32,000 nt of DNA from Halorhodospira halophila SL1 (GCF_000015585.1 NC_008789.1:2190001-2222000), one strand, 5' to 3'. Positions 6,801 through 14,749 are shown, counted from the first letter of the stretch. A program made the numbers and translations. Notes: a model not told the origin generated them from the letters alone.

Positions 6801-7256
6801 ATGAAACAGGCAGCGTCTACGCCCACCACCGACGAAGCCCTGCAGACCCTGCGTGATGCGGGGCTGCGGCTCACCCAGCCGCGGCGGCAGATCGTCGCCG
6901 CGCTGGTAGCCGCCGACGGCCCACTCAGCCCGCGGGAGCTCCACCAGCAGCTCGGGTCGGCGGCCTGCGATCCGGTGACGGTCTACCGCTGCCTGACCGA
7001 CTTCGAACGGCTCGGGCTTGTCCACCGCCACGAGTTCGGGGACGGCTCGACCCGCTACCAGCTGGTCGAGGCGGACGGCAGTCACCTGCACTACGTCATC
7101 TGCCGGCACTGCCAGCGCAAGGATCCCATCCACGCCTGCCCGGCAGATCTCGAGGCCACCGTCCGCGCCCGCGGCTACGCCGGGGTGAGCCACACCCTGG
7201 AGTTCTTCGGAGTCTGCCCCGACTGCCAGCAGGGCCCGGACCCGGAGCCACAGTGA
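6801..7256 (+). CDS. Fur-family metalloregulator (Zur/Fur-like; metal specificity not assignable)
   Basis: Winged-helix LRDAGLRLTQPRRQIVAAL...VTVYRCLTDFERLGLV, plus CxxC pairs CRHC and CPDC for the structural Zn site. Starts 10 nt after the TolC stop. Its stop overlaps the CDF start (GTGA). Confidence 0.85.
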   Translation: MKQAASTPTTDEALQTLRDAGLRLTQPRRQIVAALVAADGPLSPRELHQQLGSAACDPVTVYRCLTDFERLGLVHRHEFGDGSTRYQLVEADGSHLHYVICRHCQRKDPIHACPADLEATVRARGYAGVSHTLEFFGVCPDCQQGPDPEPQ

Positions 7257-8422
7257 GCGGCCGCCGGTCGGCCACCGCCATCGCCGAGGATCCCGCCCGG
7301 GCCAAGCGGCGTGTCACGCTGATCGGCGGGGTGATCAACCTGTTCCTTGGGTGCGGCAAGATTGCCGCCGGCTGGCTGGGCCAGTCCCAGGCCCTGGTGG
7401 TGGACGGGGTGCACTCCCTATCCGACCTGGCCTCCGACGCCCTGGTCTACGTGGCCGCCGCCTACGGCAGCCAGGAGGCGGACAGCGATCACCCCTACGG
7501 CCACGCCCGCATCGAGACCGCAGCGACCGCCGGCATCGGCGCCGTCCTCCTGCTGGTGGCCGCCGGGTTCATCTACGACGCCGTGCAGCGGCTGCTCATC
7601 ACCCCCGAGTCGCTGTGGGTGCCGGGCTGGCTGGCCCTGGGGGTGGCCCTCGCCTCGCTGGTCATCAAGGAGGGGCTCTACCACTACACCCGCTGGGTGG
7701 CCTACCGGGCGCACTCCAACCTGATCCACGCCAACGCCTGGCATCACCGCTCCGACGCCCTCTCGTCGGTGGTGGTCGTCGGCGGTATCGTCGGTGTCCT
7801 GCTCGGACTGCCGTGGCTCGACGCCGTGGCCGCCATCGTCGTGGCGGTAATGCTCGCCCACGTGGGGATCACCTTCGCCTGGCGGTCGGTCTGCGAGCTG
7901 GTGGACACCGGCCTCGACCCGGCCCAGGTCGCGCATATCGAGAGATTGGTCAGCGAGATCGACGGGGTCCGCGATGTCCACGGCCTGCGCAGCCGACACA
8001 TGGCCGAGGAGGCGCTCATCGACCTGCACATCCAGGTGGATCCGCGACTGAGTGTCTCCGAGGGCCACCGGGTCAGCGAGGCGGTGCGTCGGCGCATCAT
8101 CCAGGACATCGGGGTGGTGACCGAGGTGCTGGTCCACGTCGACCACGAACCGCCGCGCTGGGACGAGGCGACCGCTGCCCTGCCGCTGCGCGGCGTGGTG
8201 GAGCGCGACCTGCACGCCGCCTGGTCGGGTGTCGAGGGGGCCGACACCGTCGAGCGCGTCGATCTGCACTACATGGAGGGCCGCCTGGAGGTGGAACTCC
8301 ACCTGCCCTGGCGCCCCGACTGCGACGCCGCCGGGCTGCACCGGCGGGCCACACGGCTGGCCGAGGTTGCCGAGGGCCTGGCCTACGTCAGTGCCTGCCG
8401 GGTCCACTTCATTGGGCGCTGA
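7253..8422 (+). CDS. Cation diffusion facilitator (CDF) family exporter, YiiP/FieF-like, with an extra C-terminal module
   Basis: TM2 DLASD (DxxxD) and TM5 HHRSD (HxxxD) form the transport-site quartet. Signature SDHPYGHARIE. Cytoplasmic CTD VRDVHGLRSRH...LVHVDHEP is followed by ~89 further residues. GTG start overlaps the Fur-family stop. Confidence 0.9.
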   Translation: MSGRRSATAIAEDPARAKRRVTLIGGVINLFLGCGKIAAGWLGQSQALVVDGVHSLSDLASDALVYVAAAYGSQEADSDHPYGHARIETAATAGIGAVLLLVAAGFIYDAVQRLLITPESLWVPGWLALGVALASLVIKEGLYHYTRWVAYRAHSNLIHANAWHHRSDALSSVVVVGGIVGVLLGLPWLDAVAAIVVAVMLAHVGITFAWRSVCELVDTGLDPAQVAHIERLVSEIDGVRDVHGLRSRHMAEEALIDLHIQVDPRLSVSEGHRVSEAVRRRIIQDIGVVTEVLVHVDHEPPRWDEATAALPLRGVVERDLHAAWSGVEGADTVERVDLHYMEGRLEVELHLPWRPDCDAAGLHRRATRLAEVAEGLAYVSACRVHFIGR

Positions 8423-9395
8423 GCGGCGGTTCGGCCAGGGCGCCCAGCTGCTCGCGCAGCGCCAGCAGGTGCTCCTCCCAGTACCGGGGCTCAGCAAACC
8501 AGGGGAAGGCGCGGGGGAAGGCGGGATCCTCCCAGCGCTCCGCCAGCCACGCAGCGTGGCGTACCAGCCGCAGGGTGCGCAACGGCTCGATCAGGTGCAG
8601 CTCGCGCAGGTCGAGGTCGCAGAAGGTCCGGTACCCCTCGAGCACCGCCTCGAGGAAGGACTCGCGCTCGGCCCGCTCGCCGGGCAGCAGCATCCACAGA
8701 TCTTGGATGGCGGGACCGGTGCAGCTGTCGTCCAGGTCCACCAGGTGGAACCCCTCCTCGGTCTGCAGGACGTTGCCTGGGTGGAAGTCGCCGTGCAGAC
8801 GGATGGCGTGCACCGCCCCGGCCCGCTCCCAACAGGCGGCCATCGCCTCTAAGAGGTCGTCGGTGACCGTGCGGTACGCCTCCTCCAGGTGCGGCGGCAG
8901 CCAGTTTCCGGCCAGCAGCCAGTCCCGCGCCCGCCGGCCGTGGTCGCCCGGGTCGAGGCTGAGGCGATGATCGAAGGCCCCACCGCCACCCACGACGTGG
9001 ATCCGCCCCAGATAGGCCCCCAGGCGGCGGAGCACATCCCGGTTGTCCACCTCGAGCATGCGTCCGCCCCGCATGGGGTAGAGGGCAATGCGGAAACCGT
9101 GGCTGTGGGCCAGGGTCCCTGCCCCGCAGCGCAGCGGCGCTACCACCGGCACCTCGGCTGCCACCAACTCCTCGCTGAAGGCGTGCTCCTCGCGGATCTG
9201 CGCGTCGTCCCAGCGGTCGGGGCGGTAGAACTTGGCCACCACGGCCGGACCCCCCTCCACTCCGACCATGTACACCCGGTTCTCATAGCTGTTCAGGGGC
9301 AGTAGCCGGCCGTCGCTGCGTACCCCGCCCACGGCCTCGACCGCATTGAGGACGGTATCCGGATCCAGGGTCTCGAAGGGGTGGTGGGTTTCCAT
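8409..9395 (-). CDS. srkA: Stress response serine/threonine kinase SrkA (YihE/RdoA family)
   Basis: N-terminus FETLDPDTVLNAVEAVG...LPLNSYENRVYMV...AKFYRPDRW and catalytic region RLHGDFHPGNVL...LVDLDD match the YihE/aminoglycoside-phosphotransferase-like fold. The 3' end overlaps the convergent CDF gene by 14 nt. Confidence 0.88.
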   Translation of the reverse strand: METHHPFETLDPDTVLNAVEAVGGVRSDGRLLPLNSYENRVYMVGVEGGPAVVAKFYRPDRWDDAQIREEHAFSEELVAAEVPVVAPLRCGAGTLAHSHGFRIALYPMRGGRMLEVDNRDVLRRLGAYLGRIHVVGGGGAFDHRLSLDPGDHGRRARDWLLAGNWLPPHLEEAYRTVTDDLLEAMAACWERAGAVHAIRLHGDFHPGNVLQTEEGFHLVDLDDSCTGPAIQDLWMLLPGERAERESFLEAVLEGYRTFCDLDLRELHLIEPLRTLRLVRHAAWLAERWEDPAFPRAFPWFAEPRYWEEHLLALREQLGALAEPPLSAQ

Positions 9396-9530
9396 GGAGC
9401 GGCTCCTGCAGCAGGGCTTGGGTCACTTCGTTCGACCGGACGTCCCGGTCGGTGACGGGTCAGGGTAGCCCGCAGCCTGGTCGGCCGGCTATCCTTGGAC
9501 CCCTGAACGGTCAAGCAGGTGGAACATCCC

Positions 9531-9839
9531 ATGCGTATGCAGAACGTCGAGCGCGGGCCGATCGCTCGTGTGGCGGGCGTCATCGGGGCCATCGCCGTCA
9601 TCGCCCTGGCGGCGACGCTCGGCATCGTCATGCTGGCGGTCATGCTCGGTCTGGCGCTCATCGGTGCCGTGATCATCGCAGCGCGGACCTGGTGGCTGCG
9701 CCGCCAGATGCGTCGGGCCGCGGCCCGTGGCGAGGGTTTCGGCCACACCGCCCGCCCCGGGACACCGGCACACGGCCGGGTCATCGAAGGCGAATACAGT
9801 CGCGGCTCAAAGGACGACCCGCACCATCCGCGGCGTTGA
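9531..9839 (+). CDS. Small hypothetical membrane protein (two predicted TM helices, basic tail)
   Basis: High GC3 coding pattern. Hydrophobic stretch VAGVIGAIAVIALAATLGIVMLAVMLGLALIGAVIIAA followed by RTWWLRRQMRRAAARGE. AGGTGG lies ~10 nt upstream of ATG 9531; the track start at 9519 is GTG. Confidence 0.55.
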   Translation: MRMQNVERGPIARVAGVIGAIAVIALAATLGIVMLAVMLGLALIGAVIIAARTWWLRRQMRRAAARGEGFGHTARPGTPAHGRVIEGEYSRGSKDDPHHPRR

Positions 9840-9915
9840 GCCCGCCCCGGCGCAAGCGGCAGGAGCCGCCACGCCCCGGGGAGCGACCCGTTCGCCACAG
9901 GGGAGCTGAAACGGC

Positions 9916-10845
9916 GTGAAAGATCGTTTCACGGTCACCATCACCGACTTCCGCGGCGCCCGCCACTACTCGCTGCATCAGATCGCCAAGCGCTTCGCGC
10001 TGGCCCTGGCCGGAGCGGTGCTGTTGCTGCTGCTCGCCGGTGCCCTGGCCATCTACGCGCTCAACGACACGATCGATGAACTCGACCAGGTCCGCGCCGA
10101 GAAGGCGGAGGCCGCCCGCCAGATCGAGCTGCGCAACGAGCAGCTCCAGGATCTGGTCAGCGAACGCGAGCAGGAGATCCACCGCATGGATCTTGAACTC
10201 GGGCACATCGAGGCGCTGGTCGGGCTCGACCCGCAGCCCGAGGCCAACCGGCGCGAGCGACTCGACACCGCCAGCCAGACGGCGCTGGAAAAGGCGCTGA
10301 TGTTGCGGACGATCCCCAACGGCTGGCCCCTCAAGGAGGCGTCGCGGATCACCAGCGGCTACGGCTGGCGGACGCACCCGGTGACCGGCGAACGCTCCTT
10401 CCACGCCGCCGTCGATCTGCGCGCGCCGGTGGGCGAGAAGATCGTCGCCACTGCCGACGGCGTGGTCAACTACGCCGCCAAGCACCAGGGCAGCGGGCTC
10501 GGCAAGCTGGTCATCCTCGCCCACGACTTCGGCTTCCAGACCCACTACGCCCACCTGAGCAGGATCGAGGTCGAGACCGGCACGTTCGTCGAGGAGGGCG
10601 ACGTCATCGCCCGCTCCGGGGCCACGGGCAACGTCAACGGCCCCCACCTGCACTACGAGATCTGGCACACCCAGCGCAAGCTGAACCCGGAACCGTTTCT
10701 GGACTGGAGCCTGGACAACTATGAAGAGCTCTTTGAAGAAGAGGGCCGCGTAAAATGGGACTCATTGGCAAAGGGGATAAATCGAAGAGCCGAGGCCCTG
10801 GAACGACAGTTATCTGCGACGGCACGCGACTGGTCGGAGAACTGA
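9916..10845 (+). CDS. M23 (LytM-type) family metalloendopeptidase with N-terminal cytoplasmic peptide, one TM and a coiled coil
   Basis: Catalytic motifs are intact: HAAVD (HxxxD) and HLH in GPHLHYEIW (HxH). TM FALALAGAVLLLLLAGALAIYAL. Coiled coil DELDQVRAEKAEAARQIELRNEQLQDLVSEREQEI. GTG start. Confidence 0.9.
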   Translation: MKDRFTVTITDFRGARHYSLHQIAKRFALALAGAVLLLLLAGALAIYALNDTIDELDQVRAEKAEAARQIELRNEQLQDLVSEREQEIHRMDLELGHIEALVGLDPQPEANRRERLDTASQTALEKALMLRTIPNGWPLKEASRITSGYGWRTHPVTGERSFHAAVDLRAPVGEKIVATADGVVNYAAKHQGSGLGKLVILAHDFGFQTHYAHLSRIEVETGTFVEEGDVIARSGATGNVNGPHLHYEIWHTQRKLNPEPFLDWSLDNYEELFEEEGRVKWDSLAKGINRRAEALERQLSATARDWSEN

Positions 10846-11441
10846 CCCTGGAGTCGAACCTGCATCTGGACGGCCAGATCAAGGGCACCATCGTCTCGGA
10901 CCACGACGTCAGCATCGGTCATACCGGCCGCTTCGAGGGCAATATCAAGGCCCATCGGCTGCTGGTCAGCGGCTACGTCGAGGGGGTCATCGACTGCGCC
11001 AGCCTGGAGATCGTCGCCGAGGGACGGGTCTTCGGCGAGCTCCACAGCGATGACTTCATCATCGAGGCCGGCGGTCAGTTCCTCGGCGAGAGCCACCCCC
11101 GGCGCGAGGTGCCCTTGGCGGCGCTGCAGCACGAGGGCAGCCAAGCCTCCCAGCTGACCGGTCCGGCACAGCCCGAGTCCGATTCGGAGGCGACGCCCCA
11201 CCCTGACCCGGCGGCGGGCGCTGCCACCCGCGCTGAACCCGAAGCGGACCCGCCGCAGCCCGAGAGGCCGGACCCGGCGCCACGCCAACACGCCGAGCCA
11301 CCCCCGGACGACGCCTCCGGGACGACCGACGAGCCAACCCCCGACCCGGAGGACGAACCGGAGCAGGAAGCAGACTCCGAGCAGGAGCCATCCCGTCATT
11401 TCCGGCCCCAGCCCCGACAGACCTTCTGGGGACGACGCTGA
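10755..11441 (+). CDS. Bactofilin (DUF583 beta-helix) with a long Pro/Glu/Asp-rich C-terminal tail
   Basis: Repeating beta-helix pattern TVICDGTRLVGELTLESNLHLDGQIKGTIVSDHDVSIGHTGRFEGNIKAHRLLVSGYVEGVIDCASLEIVAEGRVFGEL. Lys-rich N-terminus MGLIGKGDKSKSRG. AGAGGG SD 9 nt upstream of the ATG. The first 91 nt overlap the M23 gene out of frame. Confidence 0.88.
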   Translation: MGLIGKGDKSKSRGPGTTVICDGTRLVGELTLESNLHLDGQIKGTIVSDHDVSIGHTGRFEGNIKAHRLLVSGYVEGVIDCASLEIVAEGRVFGELHSDDFIIEAGGQFLGESHPRREVPLAALQHEGSQASQLTGPAQPESDSEATPHPDPAAGAATRAEPEADPPQPERPDPAPRQHAEPPPDDASGTTDEPTPDPEDEPEQEADSEQEPSRHFRPQPRQTFWGRR

Positions 11442-11555
11442 TCGGTGGCGGCGCCGCCGGCCGCCTGTGCTAGCATGGCCGGCATCCGCTTGGGGATTCA
11501 GGGCACCTGAACGCCCAGAGAGAGACGGCGAACGGGCAACAGAGGGGGATACGCC

Positions 11556-12710
11556 GTGGAACGTTGCATTGGCCTGGACATGGGGTACGGGTTCATCAAG
11601 ATCGATGACGGCCGCGAGGGGCACGTATTCCCCAGCGTCGTCGGCGAGGGCGAATCGGGCATGCCGATGTCCCTGGGCGTGGCCCAGCGCAGCGGCAGCA
11701 GCGAGCTTCGCATCACCTACGGCGGCAAGAGCTACCTGCTCGGCGACTACGCCATCCGCCACTCCCGCCTGGCGCACCGGGGGCTGTCGCCCACCCGCGC
11801 CGAAGGGGACGACCTCAAGATCCTCTTCCTCGGTGCACTGAGCCTCTACGCCCGCGAGACCGTGAACAACTTCCACGTCGTCACCGGCCTGCCGCCGGGG
11901 CGCATGCACATGGCCGACGACCTGGTCCGCCAGCTGCGCGGCGACCATGAAGTCATCCGCCACGTGGGCGCGAGCCGCTTCGGGGTAAGCATCCGCCTGG
12001 AGCAGATTGAGGTGGTCCCGCAGCCGGTGGGCAGCTTCTGGGCCGAGGTGCTGGATGATCGGGGGCAGATCCGTGGTGATCACCCGCTGCTCAACGGCCG
12101 GGTCGGGATCATGGACATCGGCTTCCGGACCAGCGACTTCGCCACGGTCATCGATGGCGAGTACTCCCCGGGGTTCTGCAAGACGGTGCCGCTGGGCATC
12201 TCCTTCGGCTACGAGGAGATCGCCCAGGAGCTCTCTACCCAGTACGGGCTCGAGCGCGAGCAGTACACCCTGGACGAGGCCATCATCCAGGGGCAGGTGA
12301 ACGTCAACGGCCGCCCGGTGGACATCGTCGAGCTCCGCGATCGGATCTTCGGCGACATCGCCACCAAGCTGCTGGTCGAGGCGCGCTCGATGTGGCAGAT
12401 CCAGGAGTACGACCACATCATCATCACCGGCGGCGGCGGCCGGGTGCTTGAGCGCTACCTGCGTCCGGAACTCTCCCAGGCCCAGCTGGCCCAGGACTCC
12501 GTCACCGCCAACGCCCGCGGCTATTTCAACTGGGCCTACTTCAACGCCCAGCAGCGGGCCGCGGAGATGGGCCACGCCACGGAACAGAGTTCGGCAGAGG
12601 ACTACAGCTCCGGCAGCTACGGCACCGGGAGCACCACCTACAGCCGGGGGGGCGACGACGGCCGAGACAGCGCCGCCGTGCCGCAGTCGCGCAGCGGCAG
12701 CGAGGGCTGA
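11556..12710 (+). CDS. ParM/StbA-type actin-like ATPase (chromosomal, orphan)
   Basis: Actin-fold motifs in the correct order: phosphate-1 IGLDMGYGFIKI, connect-1 VVTGLPPG, phosphate-2 GIMDIGFRTSDFATV, adenosine HIIITGGGG, connect-2 ANARGYFNWA. Layout parallels R1 ParM as I recall it. GAGGGGG SD 8 nt before the GTG start. ~55-aa Ser/Gly/Tyr-rich tail. Confidence 0.8.
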   Translation: MERCIGLDMGYGFIKIDDGREGHVFPSVVGEGESGMPMSLGVAQRSGSSELRITYGGKSYLLGDYAIRHSRLAHRGLSPTRAEGDDLKILFLGALSLYARETVNNFHVVTGLPPGRMHMADDLVRQLRGDHEVIRHVGASRFGVSIRLEQIEVVPQPVGSFWAEVLDDRGQIRGDHPLLNGRVGIMDIGFRTSDFATVIDGEYSPGFCKTVPLGISFGYEEIAQELSTQYGLEREQYTLDEAIIQGQVNVNGRPVDIVELRDRIFGDIATKLLVEARSMWQIQEYDHIIITGGGGRVLERYLRPELSQAQLAQDSVTANARGYFNWAYFNAQQRAAEMGHATEQSSAEDYSSGSYGTGSTTYSRGGDDGRDSAAVPQSRSGSEG

Positions 12711-12754
12711 CCTCCTGCCGGCCGGGGCCTCGCCCCGGTGCCGGAACAGGCCAA

Positions 12755-12785
12755 GGGGCCGCGCCTCGGCGCGGCCCCTTTTTTT
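12755..12785 (+). terminator. Rho-independent terminator after the actin-like gene
   Basis: GGGGCCGCGC / GCGCGGCCCC perfect 10-bp stem, 4-nt loop, followed by seven Ts (12779-12785). A second 7-bp hairpin, CCGGGGC/GCCCCGG, lies at 12722-12738. Confidence 0.85.
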
Positions 12786-12802
12786 GATTGGGGCGGGTCA
12801 AT

Positions 12803-12870
12803 CTGCTGTTGCAACGCAGCACGGGCGGTGCTATGTTGCATCGCACAAGGCATGGCGAGCGGTCATGCCT
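12803..12870 (+). promoter_or_regulatory. Candidate operator/promoter/5'-UTR structure upstream of the phasin gene
   Basis: Two related palindromic elements share the core TGTTGCA-N-CGCA, spaced 27 bp apart: CTGC-T-GTTGCAAC-GCAG at 12803-12819, and GTGCTATG-TTG-CATCGCAC at 12828-12846 (7/8 arms). A further AGGCATG/CATGCCT hairpin lies at 12848-12870. All sit in the lowest-GC stretch of the window. Confidence 0.3.
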
Positions 12871-12898
12871 CGAGCAGCTTCAACAAGGAGAGAGACCC

Positions 12899-13366
12899 AT
12901 GCAAGACCAGCTCAACAAGTCCATGCAGCAGTTCCAGAAGATGATGGAGCCCAGCCGCAAGCTCAACGCGCTGCTCCTCGAGCACGCCGAGAAGGTGGCC
13001 CACCTGAACCTGGAAGCCGCCCGTTCCTACACCGATCTGGCCATGGAGCAGATGCGCAAGGCCATGGAGGTCCGGGACCCGGAGAGCTTCCAGAGCTACC
13101 TGAACGACCAGGGCAAGGTCGTCCAGACGATGAGCAACAAGCTCACGGAGAACGCCAGCACCCTGGCCGACATCAGCAAGAACATGGGCGAAGAGGTGCA
13201 GAAGATCGCCCAAGAGAACGTCTCCGCCCTCACCGAGACGATGCAGGGCCAGGCTGAGAAGGCCTCCGGCAAGGGCCGCAGCGCTGGCAGCAGTGCCGGT
13301 AGCAGCGCCTCTGCGGGTAGCAGCAGTGGCTCCGCTGCCTCCGGCAGCAGCAAGAAGTCCGCGTAA
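12899..13366 (+). CDS. phaP: Phasin family protein (PHA granule-associated)
   Basis: MQDQLNKSMQQFQKMMEPSRKLNALLLEHAEKVAHLNLEAARSYTDLAMEQMRKAMEVRDPESFQSYL is typical of the amphipathic phasin_2 type. AAGGAGAG SD precedes ATG 12899; the track ORF start at 12788 crosses the upstream terminator region. Ser/Ala/Gly-rich tail. Confidence 0.85.
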   Translation: MQDQLNKSMQQFQKMMEPSRKLNALLLEHAEKVAHLNLEAARSYTDLAMEQMRKAMEVRDPESFQSYLNDQGKVVQTMSNKLTENASTLADISKNMGEEVQKIAQENVSALTETMQGQAEKASGKGRSAGSSAGSSASAGSSSGSAASGSSKKSA

Positions 13367-13395
13367 CCCCCTCGGGGAGGCGCGGTGACGGAGTC

Positions 13396-13429
13396 GGTGC
13401 CCCGCGGGGCACCGGCTCCTTTGTGTTTT
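13396..13429 (+). terminator. Rho-independent terminator after the phasin gene, in the gap shared with convergent purD
   Basis: Perfect 18-nt palindrome GGTGCCCCGCGGGGCACC followed by the T-rich GGCTCCTTTGTGTTTT. The T tract is on the + strand only. Confidence 0.7.
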
Positions 13430-13459
13430 CAGCCCCGTAGGGCGAGACCTACCCCGCGG

Positions 13460-14749
13460 TCAGCCGGTCTCCCGGGCGATGGCCCGCGCACCGATATCCC
13501 GCCGGTAGAACACCCCTTCCCAATGGATGGCCGCCACCCCCCGGTAGGCCGCCTGCTGCGCTGCAGAGACACGCTCACCCAGCGCGCAACAGCACAGCAC
13601 CCGCCCCCCGTTGGTCACCACACGGCCGTCGGCGTCGAAGGTCGTGCCGCCGTGGAAGACCTTGCAGCCGGTGGCCTCGGCGTCGTCGAGCCCTTCGATG
13701 ACATCGCCCCGCTCCACCGACCCTGGATAGCCGGCCGCCGCCATCACCACGCCCACAGCAGGACGCGAGTCCCAGGCCAGATCCACCTCGCCCAGTCGCC
13801 CCTCGAGGGCGGCCCGGCAGACTTCGGCAAAATCCGCGTCCAGGCGCATCAACAGCGGCTGCGCCTCCGGGTCACCCAGGCGGCAGTTGTACTCCAGCAC
13901 CCGGGGGTTGCCGTCGGCGTCGATCATCAGTCCGGCGTAGAGGAAGCCCTGATAGGGGCGCCCCTCGGCGGCCAGCCCCTGGACCGTGGGGCGGATCACC
14001 TCGTCCATGACCCGCTGGTAGAGCTGCTCATCCATCAGCGGCGCCGGCGAATAGGCCCCCATACCACCGGTGTTGGGGCCCCGATCTCCGTCGTCCCGCG
14101 GCTTGTGATCCTGGGAGCTGGCCATCGCCACCACGTGCTCGCCATCGACCAGCGCGATGAAGCTCAGCTCCTCGCCCTGCAGGCACTCCTCGACCACGAC
14201 CCGCGCGCCGGCATCCCCGAAGGCCTGCCCCGAGAGCATGCGCTCGGCCGCCAATAGGGCCTCGTCCTTGGTCGCCGCCACCTCGACCCCCTTGCCGGAG
14301 GCCAGGCCGTCCGCCTTGATGACCATCGGCGTCGAGTGCTCGCGGATATAGTCGCTGGCCGCCCCCAGGTCGTCGAAGGTGCGGTAGGCGGCCGTTGGCA
14401 CCCCGTGACGCGCCATGAACGCCTTGGCAAACGCCTTCGAGCCCTCCAGCTCGGCGGCGTCCGCCGTCGGCCCCAGACACGCCAGACCCGCCTGCTGGAA
14501 GGCGTCCACCACGCCGGCCACCAGGGGCGCCTCGGGGCCGACCACGGTCAAAGCCACCTCCTGCTCGCGGGCCTGTTGGACCAGCGCGGGGATATCCTCC
14601 GCCCCCACCTGGATGTTGCGCACCTTGGGCTCGCGCTCCGTGCCGGCATTCCCCGGGGCGACCAGCACCTCCTCGACCTGCTTGGAGCGCGCCAGGGCCC
14701 AGGCCATGGCGTGCTCGCGGCCGCCCCCTCCGATCACCAGTACCTTCAT
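13460..14749 (-). CDS. purD: Phosphoribosylamine--glycine ligase
   Basis: MKVLVIGGGGREHAMAWALARS..., an ATP-grasp core, and the C-terminus GGRVLCCCALGE...AYRGVAAIHWEGVFYRRDIG. Full-length PurD pattern. Confidence 0.97.
   Translation of the reverse strand: MKVLVIGGGGREHAMAWALARSKQVEEVLVAPGNAGTEREPKVRNIQVGAEDIPALVQQAREQEVALTVVGPEAPLVAGVVDAFQQAGLACLGPTADAAELEGSKAFAKAFMARHGVPTAAYRTFDDLGAASDYIREHSTPMVIKADGLASGKGVEVAATKDEALLAAERMLSGQAFGDAGARVVVEECLQGEELSFIALVDGEHVVAMASSQDHKPRDDGDRGPNTGGMGAYSPAPLMDEQLYQRVMDEVIRPTVQGLAAEGRPYQGFLYAGLMIDADGNPRVLEYNCRLGDPEAQPLLMRLDADFAEVCRAALEGRLGEVDLAWDSRPAVGVVMAAAGYPGSVERGDVIEGLDDAEATGCKVFHGGTTFDADGRVVTNGGRVLCCCALGERVSAAQQAAYRGVAAIHWEGVFYRRDIGARAIARETG

Follow-up and report, generated by a model that had tools for sequence, protein, structure and literature searches.

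The usual picture of bactofilins is one of static scaffolds that work independently of nucleotides, which raises the question of how they are positioned and how they are linked to the dynamic cytoskeleton. They recruit bitopic LmdC-type M23 endopeptidases via a conserved cytoplasmic beta-hairpin, and 226 species have been catalogued in which the bactofilin and M23 genes are adjacent (Pöhl et al. 2024, PMC10945521). Among the partners of ParM-derived actins encoded on chromosomes, CorR of Anabaena starts with an amphipathic membrane helix, followed by an RHH2 domain and, at the C-terminus, by an essential peptide that binds CorM (bioRxiv 10.1101/2025.06.27.661541), and in Nostoc punctiforme the retention of FcmB filaments at the membrane requires FcmC (PMC12645912). 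Here we analyse a locus on the 2.68-Mb chromosome of Halorhodospira halophila SL1, contained in a stretch of 32,000 nucleotides (nt; NC_008789.1, 2190001-2222000, hereafter the window), where genes for an M23 endopeptidase, a tailed bactofilin and a ParM-family actin follow one another. The M23-bactofilin half is already published, this exact pair included: the Figure 7 source data of the catalogue list it at 2199916-2200845 and 2200755-2201441 (PMC10945521), which are the window coordinates plus 2,190,000. Our subject is the other half, the pairing of the actin with the bactofilin and with its conserved C-terminal peptide. This peptide is the most informative feature of the locus and was missed by an earlier note on this DNA, which had proposed that the cluster is a two-cytoskeleton wall-remodelling module.

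Linkage of actin and bactofilin genes in two phyla

The actin-fold ATPase gene (11556-12710, + strand) matches PF17989 ALP_N (2.3e-34) and MreB-like_C (PF21522, 1.4e-14), and is preceded by the bactofilin gene (10755-11441, + strand; PF04519, 1.8e-22, residues 18-113). The earlier note had proposed asking how often such neighbours recur in other genomes. For this census, an actin profile scan with one genome per species yielded 80 loci, whose open reading frames (ORFs) were searched with iterated hidden Markov models seeded from the window proteins. The clade of the window actin comprises 70 loci, down to ~39% identity, of which 65 were evaluable; the 10 more distant ParM-like loci were used as outgroup. 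A bactofilin gene directly adjoins the actin gene, on the same strand, in 56 of the 65 evaluable species-level loci, so the association extends beyond this genome and across two phyla. The side differs between the phyla and the strand does not: among evaluable loci, the bactofilin gene lies directly upstream at 12 of 17 from Gammaproteobacteria (Ectothiorhodospiraceae), with gaps of 69-149 nt, and directly downstream at 44 of 48 from Bacillota (Symbiobacteriaceae, many Clostridia, Tepidanaerobacteraceae and others), with a median gap of ~20 nt. None of the 10 outgroup loci has a bactofilin. It is the only neighbour conserved in both phyla; the other neighbours are lineage-specific housekeeping or regulatory genes, and no integrase, relaxase or phage gene was found among them. 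From this comparative evidence we conclude that the tie of the actin gene to the bactofilin is functional and not a chance insertion.

The actin and bactofilin trees have subclades in common (Mantel r = 0.86, 0/2000 permutations), a correlation to which the species phylogeny contributes. The gammaproteobacterial actins form one clade, sister to Symbiobacteriaceae and nested inside the Bacillota, and this topology suggests one ancient transfer. Given that the members without a bactofilin nest inside the linked clade, secondary loss or relocation of the bactofilin gene is the probable origin of their arrangement; actin genes of this kind are those of Ectothiorhodospira, Natronospira, L031, L032 and L066. 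When an unlinked tailed bactofilin was sought in Ectothiorhodospira, a word-indexed search gave only relatives from Halorhodospira and Aquisalimonas, which is not proof of absence.

The actin protein consists of an actin fold (residues 1 to ~345) and a disordered Ser/Gly-rich C-terminal tail (residues ~346-384); such an extra disordered C-terminal tail, of ~40-50 amino acids (aa), is a feature of the gammaproteobacterial actins. The actin fold was modelled with confidence by AlphaFold2 (AF2; predicted local distance difference test, pLDDT, ~90), and the nucleotide motifs are kept across the clade (D8/G10/G12/K15, Q156, D187/G189/T192/D194 and G292-294). The nearest structures in Foldseek were Dh-cParM1 (8x1i, the top match, ~23% identity), pCBH ParM, pSK41 ParM, CorM and Ta0583, and profile matches in the PDB included 6izr (2.3e-37), with CorM reaching only 1.7e-15. 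The protein scores 81 bits with the NCBIfam ParM equivalog model (cut-off 417) and 43 bits with the FcmB model (cut-off 300). The highest identity to a plasmid relative is 27.5% and to a phage relative 31%, and a single match, of 30% identity, came from IMG/VR. A plasmid, phage or IMG/VR origin of the gene was therefore rejected, as no close relatives were found there, and the chance insertion from a plasmid or prophage that the earlier note had considered finds no support. Among the window ORFs, no ParR-like (small ribbon-helix-helix-like) ORF adjoins the actin gene, and no iterated parC-like direct-repeat arrays were detected in the flanks or spacers of the locus, in agreement with the earlier description of an actin with no partition partners.

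Other arrangements were seen around actin genes in the census. At four loci from Bacillota metagenome-assembled genomes (MAGs), a distant ParM-like gene (30-33% identity) is followed by a gene for a ~145-aa protein (L077 7040-7462, L078 3683-4126, L079 2247-2690 and L080 5945-6373). Its N-domain gives a weak Hfq/Sm-like match that stays below the cut-off, at 17 bits; a linker then leads to the conserved terminal motif LD[EQ]LV.[DN]W-COOH. Next comes the gene of another conserved protein, ~281 aa long and without a match in Pfam; these loci could represent another uncharacterised chromosomal system of ParM plus adaptor. A MAG labelled Symbiobacterium thermophilum encodes three tandem ParM-like paralogues on one contig (L074 19-3600), where no bactofilin was detected. 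At about seven Clostridia loci (e.g. L031 4573-5658 and L033 4582-5688), a conserved ~365-aa protein with two P-loop motifs, giving only weak AAA/STAND matches in Pfam, is encoded divergently upstream of the actin gene.

The bactofilin tail and its terminal peptide

The bactofilin of the window has four parts: an N-terminal MGLIGKGDKSK that resembles a membrane-targeting sequence, a beta-helix core (residues 18-113, nt 10806-11093), an acidic, proline-rich disordered linker (residues 114-220) and the terminal peptide RQTFWGRR (nt 11415-11438). In the AF2 model, the core is a stack of beta strands with pLDDT 85-93, and the tail scores 32-50. The N-terminus MGLIGKGDKSKSR combines a hydrophobic start with lysines, yet does not match MFSKKKK, the consensus of membrane-targeting bactofilin N-termini (PMC12448750). 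Many partner bactofilins of the Bacillota start with MFGWRRK or MFGRT.., and others have acidic amphipathic N-termini.

All 57 of the actin-linked tailed bactofilins carry an aromatic motif at the C-terminus or within ~30 residues of it. They are built alike, with a beta-helix core, a low-complexity linker (median tail length 88 aa, up to 205) and a short aromatic peptide, the sequence of which differs between lineages. The terminal motif is Fxx[ST][FY]-COOH in Clostridia (38 loci), [QHR]T[FVT]W[GD]R[RH]-COOH in Halorhodospira and Alkalispirillum, and RRW[RS]-COOH in the Aquisalimonas group, and Symbiobacteriaceae have FxGx[FY] close to the C-terminus. The motif is absent from all six bactofilins that are unpaired with an actin gene, namely the short second copies in L025, L043, L049 and L058 and those of Alkalilimnicola and Nitrosophilus, whose tails measure only 4-28 aa. 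The same difference is found within a single family: in Alkalispirillum, which has the actin gene, the bactofilin tail ends in QTVWDRR, but in Alkalilimnicola, where the actin gene is missing, the bactofilin is 138 aa long and shows no such motif. The presence of the peptide thus tracks that of the actin gene.

The bactofilin of S. thermophilum was considered as a motif-less exception and rejected as such, since TIVFRGYMRTKRR is present in the +1 frame. In strain IAM 14863, the tail (L001 7380-7700) is frameshifted relative to its relatives, so that the deposited genome contains a sequencing error here or the gene has been inactivated by a genuine mutation.

The M23 endopeptidase and the organisation of the cluster

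The four co-directional + strand genes that had been noted in this region were all confirmed as ORFs, three of them with domain matches, and each has a Shine-Dalgarno-like sequence ahead of it. The M23 gene (9916-10845, + strand; PF01551, 6.8e-30) encodes a protein with the LmdC-like layout that had been recognised before: a predicted cytoplasmic beta-hairpin (residues 6-19, nt 9931-9972), a transmembrane (TM) segment and coiled coil (residues 20-101), the M23 domain (residues 132-262, nt 10309-10701) and, at the C-terminus, a conserved extension (residues 263-309). Residues H163, D167, H244 and H246, which are the zinc ligands of the HxxxD and HxH motifs earlier described as intact, are invariant in an alignment of 36 proteins. 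In the AF2 model (pLDDT 87.8), the M23 domain is confident, strands 6-11 and 14-19 have moderate pLDDT (58-68), and a continuous helix (20-101) spans the hydrophobic stretch 27-49 and is followed by helix 112-132 and the M23 domain. The N-terminal consensus of the alignment is MRxRFTVTITDxRGARHYSLxQ. Both the hairpin motif, RFT[VLI]TI[TS]D.[RH]G..[HQ]Y[ST]LHQ, and the C-terminal extension are kept from Halorhodospira to Nitrosophilus (Campylobacterota), in a comparison that covered the homologues of the window protein. The closest structures are those of Helicobacter pylori Csd1-Csd2 (5j1l/5j1m; TM-score 0.92, root-mean-square deviation 1.5 Å, 38% identity in Foldseek; phmmer 3.8e-43). By sequence and model, the protein is an LmdC/Csd1-type bitopic endopeptidase, with bactofilin binding and hydrolase activity as predicted properties.

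The M23 and bactofilin genes overlap by 91 nt (10755-10845), with identical coordinates in RefSeq, and the first 30 bactofilin codons are read, in a different frame, from the final 91 nt of M23. Owing to this overlap, the same DNA encodes the C-terminal extension of the M23 protein and the N-terminus of the bactofilin. The 91-nt overlap recurs in Halorhodospira species, Alkalispirillum (L087 4870-4960) and Alkalilimnicola (L089 4768-4858) and suggests translational coupling.

The first gene of the cluster (9531-9839, + strand, with an alternative GTG start at 9519) encodes a small hydrophobic membrane protein of ~102 aa that has no Pfam match. A hydrophobic stretch of ~46 residues, predicted to form two TM helices, is followed in it by WWLRRQ and by a basic tail with (V/I)IEGEY. 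Homologues with WW.RRQ...IIEGEY occur only at loci with the M23-bactofilin pair, upstream of it in Halorhodospira and Alkalispirillum and downstream in Alkalilimnicola, where no actin gene is adjacent. Given that it is found only where M23 and bactofilin genes adjoin, this small protein belongs to the M23-bactofilin half.

The M23 gene itself behaves as an addition to the actin-bactofilin pair. It adjoins the pair in all seven Halorhodospira loci, in Alkalispirillum mobile, which has the same four-gene order and the same 91-nt overlap, and in three Bacillota loci (L025, L043 and L045). The order in L025 (1936-5105) is M23, a short bactofilin of 117 aa, actin and a tailed bactofilin of 224 aa with an FHGTF motif; this looks like a natural separation of two client functions that are combined in the one bactofilin of Halorhodospira. 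Elsewhere the parts come apart: Aquisalimonas has the bactofilin-actin pair and a solitary M23 orthologue at another position, S. thermophilum has separate M23-bactofilin and actin-bactofilin loci, and Alkalilimnicola has M23, bactofilin and the small TM protein, with no actin gene at the locus. In the spirillum genera Halorhodospira and Alkalispirillum, one bactofilin appears to serve both M23 and actin; H. halophila itself is a spirillum. Because the M23 gene adjoins the pair only in Halorhodospira, Alkalispirillum and the three Bacillota loci, a wall-remodelling role for the actin is not established. The two-cytoskeleton module claimed at the outset is therefore retained in part: the actin is tied to the bactofilin, but the conserved unit lacks M23 and the claimed wall role of the actin does not follow from it.

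Transcription signals were sought around the cluster. Only two terminator-like sites lie within 8500-13500, one at 13390, after a phasin gene, and one at 12753-12786 (+ strand), an intrinsic terminator with a 13-bp perfect GC-rich stem, a 2-nt loop and a T run. No site precedes the latter, as had been stated before; its stem measures 13 bp instead of 10, and the scan found no terminator between the four genes. The 114-nt spacer between bactofilin and actin folds no better than shuffled sequence (z = 0.13); neither the site scan nor the folding test revealed a hidden terminator there. The only conserved block of this spacer, CTGTGCTAGCATGG (11464-11478, + strand), is kept in eight of eight Halorhodospira loci while the remaining spacer drifts. 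It occurs once in the window, ~75 nt 5' of the actin start codon, and contains the conserved element TGCTAGCAT at 11468-11476. By its sequence, CTGTGCTAGCATGG may be an extended -10 element (TGnTAGCAT) and thus a candidate internal promoter (P2) of the actin gene; alternatively, it may be a putative palindromic (TGCTAGCA) binding site. Since this conserved candidate promoter precedes the actin gene, a single transcription unit is unproven: of the co-directional unit described earlier, the lack of an internal terminator stands, but its singleness is put in doubt.

Upstream of the first gene, the blocks TCAGGGTAGCCC and GCTATCCTTGG (9460-9498, + strand) are kept among Halorhodospira loci while their flanks drift in the alignment. 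They would form a candidate promoter (P1), in a region where a scan for consensus sigma-70 promoters gave no match. This intergenic region is shared with srkA (8409-9395; NCBIfam PRK11768, 1.3e-134), which is divergent from the four-gene cluster, as the earlier note had it. Upstream of srkA lies what looks like an ordinary metal-homeostasis pair: the gene of a Fur-family regulator (6801-7256) and, overlapped by it at the start, that of a cation-diffusion-facilitator transporter (7253-8422). Downstream of the terminator, a phasin-family gene (12788-13366; PF09361, 2.5e-18) encodes a protein with a Ser/Gly/Ala-rich low-complexity tail; other Halorhodospira loci and Alkalispirillum (L087 7406-7939) likewise have a phasin gene 3' of the cluster. 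The 5' end of the window gene contains two 12-nt direct repeats, TGTTGCA[AT]CGCA (12807-12818 and 12834-12845), which may be a regulator site.

Proposed mechanism, alternatives and known systems

We consider it reasonably probable that the locus combines two modules with one bactofilin in common, and that the tailed bactofilin is the adaptor of the actin. The adaptor role is proposed because the protein is built in the manner of ParM adaptors: its N-terminus resembles a membrane-targeting sequence, its core would multimerise, and a flexible linker carries the terminal peptide. CorR, FcmC and the ~145-aa proteins of L077-L080 serve as precedents. The first module would comprise the bitopic M23 endopeptidase and the small accessory membrane protein, recruited by the cytoplasmic beta-hairpin to a membrane-bound bactofilin polymer, which would localise wall cutting and thereby shape the cell. 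The second would be formed by the chromosomal ParM-family actin as conserved genomic partner of the tailed bactofilin, the latter taking the role played elsewhere by ParR, CorR or FcmC. With its N-terminus on the membrane and its beta-helix core polymerised into a multivalent platform, the bactofilin would present RQTFWGRR on the disordered tail, capturing or anchoring ATP-driven actin filaments. In the spirilla (Halorhodospira and Alkalispirillum), the dynamic actin would be coupled through the static bactofilin scaffold to the wall hydrolase, positioned along the curved cell. Gene content, folds, catalytic and nucleotide motifs, linkage in two phyla, co-inheritance and the match of tail motif with actin linkage are observations; binding of the tail peptide to the actin, membrane anchoring, polymerisation and the effect on cell shape are inferred. 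A wider scenario is more doubtful, and we put it forward only tentatively: the tailed bactofilin may have replaced ParR/parC as a protein-only, membrane-bound platform, resulting in a two-polymer cytoskeleton conserved in Bacillota and transferred once to Ectothiorhodospiraceae, which in spirilla would be wired to the endopeptidase, with filament and scaffold together setting the wall-cutting sites for a helical cell.

Several observations weigh against this proposal. Nine evaluable loci have an actin gene without an adjacent bactofilin, spiral Ectothiorhodospira included, and the pair occurs in Aquisalimonas, which is rod-shaped, so that cell shape does not follow the pair in any simple way. 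The core of the gammaproteobacterial bactofilin is equidistant (0.78-0.79) from every Bacillota group, and these distances favour no group as its source. The terminal motif varies by lineage (FxxS[FY], FxGx[FY], xWGRR and RRW[RS]), so that a common binding mode is an assumption. When the actin and bactofilin were modelled by AF2 as a single chain, both domains folded well, but the terminal peptide kept a pLDDT of ~32 and neither gained confidence nor docked; this is a weak test, as the modelled chain is a chimera, the alignment does not cover the tail and the output gives no inter-residue errors. The sole apparent natural fusion (P0077, L002 4156-5613, from a Symbiobacterium MAG), a 485-aa ORF in which the actin is joined directly to the bactofilin Met, was rejected as Rosetta-stone evidence: its actin part is without the last ~37 fold residues, including the invariant A318, N319 and W326, making it a deletion-fusion that may be a pseudogene or an assembly artefact. 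Finally, the candidate internal promoter ahead of the actin gene might uncouple actin expression from that of the other genes.

An unlikely alternative, though one to be taken seriously, is that the pair positions or segregates another cargo (chromosome, polyhydroxyalkanoate granules or intracytoplasmic membranes), unrelated to peptidoglycan, with M23 adjoining in spirilla only via the common scaffold. ParM relatives normally move cargo, but the locus has neither a DNA-binding adaptor nor centromere-like repeats, and both characterised chromosomal ParM-derived systems, CorMR and FcmBC, govern cell shape, not segregation. The majority of pair loci have no M23 neighbour, the M23-bactofilin pair of S. 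thermophilum is at a separate locus, and rod-shaped Aquisalimonas keeps the pair with M23 unlinked; however, M23 joined the pair independently in Bacillota. The phasin gene 3' of the cluster in Halorhodospira and Alkalispirillum also fits such a cargo, but a strong terminator separates it from the cluster, and the loci of Aquisalimonas and Bacillota have no phasin gene.

The direction of control might also be reversed, which we regard as improbable: the actin would position, move or limit the bactofilin patch, or the tail would cap or depolymerise the actin, so that the bactofilin would not be a passive anchor. The linkage and tail evidence for the adaptor role serves this possibility equally, and no data here discriminate the direction of control. 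Many N-termini of actin-linked bactofilins resemble the published membrane-targeting consensus, which fits anchoring, whereas Cb-cParR is a depolymerisation factor for its ParM (PMC12270681) and the localisation of the Rhodospirillum rubrum bactofilin depends on its partners (PMC10945521). That the actin gene is what is left of a partition cassette, brought in by a plasmid or prophage that integrated beside the bactofilin by chance, and that the adjacency has no function, is scarcely credible. Pfam and NCBI name the protein ParM/StbA and plasmid ParMs stand among its nearest solved structures, but the comparative data effectively refute this reading: the neighbours are co-inherited in both phyla, even where identity falls to 39%, plasmid and phage relatives do not exceed 31%, no ParR, parC, integrase or relaxase is nearby, and the tail motif tracks the actin gene.

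A pairing of a bactofilin with a ParM-like actin is not described in the literature searched, which included the full text of key papers but not most subscription-journal papers. The module of actin plus tailed bactofilin thus appears to be new, and the novelty claimed at first is narrowed to it by the published M23-bactofilin half. If true, a conserved coupling between a bactofilin subfamily and an ATP-driven actin would give a handle on how these scaffolds are linked to the dynamic cytoskeleton, with the terminal peptide as a possible physical link, and the module of Halorhodospira and Alkalispirillum would offer a route to the study of helical shape in Gammaproteobacteria.

With BacA-LmdC (Hyphomonas neptunium and Rhodospirillum rubrum) and CcmA-Csd1/Csd2 (H. 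pylori), the locus shares the adjacent bactofilin and bitopic M23 protein, the hairpin, the TM segment, the coiled coil and the intact active site. It differs from them in the ~115-aa disordered bactofilin tail with its terminal peptide, in the actin-like gene and in the small 2-TM protein, which are absent from the described module. The likeness to CorMR and FcmBC lies in a chromosomal ParM-derived actin conserved in its lineage beside a partner gene, and would extend to an adaptor with a membrane anchor and an actin-binding C-terminal peptide; those systems were repurposed from DNA segregation to cell-shape control, and CorM is among the structures nearest to the window actin. In contrast to them, the partner is here a bactofilin, which is a polymer-forming protein, where they have a ParR homologue of the ribbon-helix-helix fold, the actin clade and host phyla differ, and in spirilla there is a direct genetic linkage to an M23 hydrolase. 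Dh-cParM1 and Cb-cParM are likewise chromosomal ParM-family actins, in Bacillota, but their cassettes keep ParR, and Cb-cParMR also parC, with no bactofilin mentioned (PMC12270681).

Plasmid ParMRC systems (R1, pSK41 and pCBH) resemble the module in the actin fold, the nucleotide motifs and a partner whose C-terminal peptide follows a flexible linker, and the actin-then-partner gene order of Bacillota mirrors parM-parR; the present locus, however, is chromosomal and has no DNA-binding adaptor and no centromere. FtsZ has a polymer-forming core, a disordered linker of variable length and a conserved C-terminal peptide that docks on the actin-fold FtsA. The parallel with the tailed bactofilin is an analogy only, given that the core is tubulin-like in one and beta-helical in the other and that the roles differ. 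If the proposed pairing is true, it would be the third independent case of a plasmid-type ParM domesticated on a chromosome, after CorMR/FcmBC and the cParMs, with an adaptor of a different fold.

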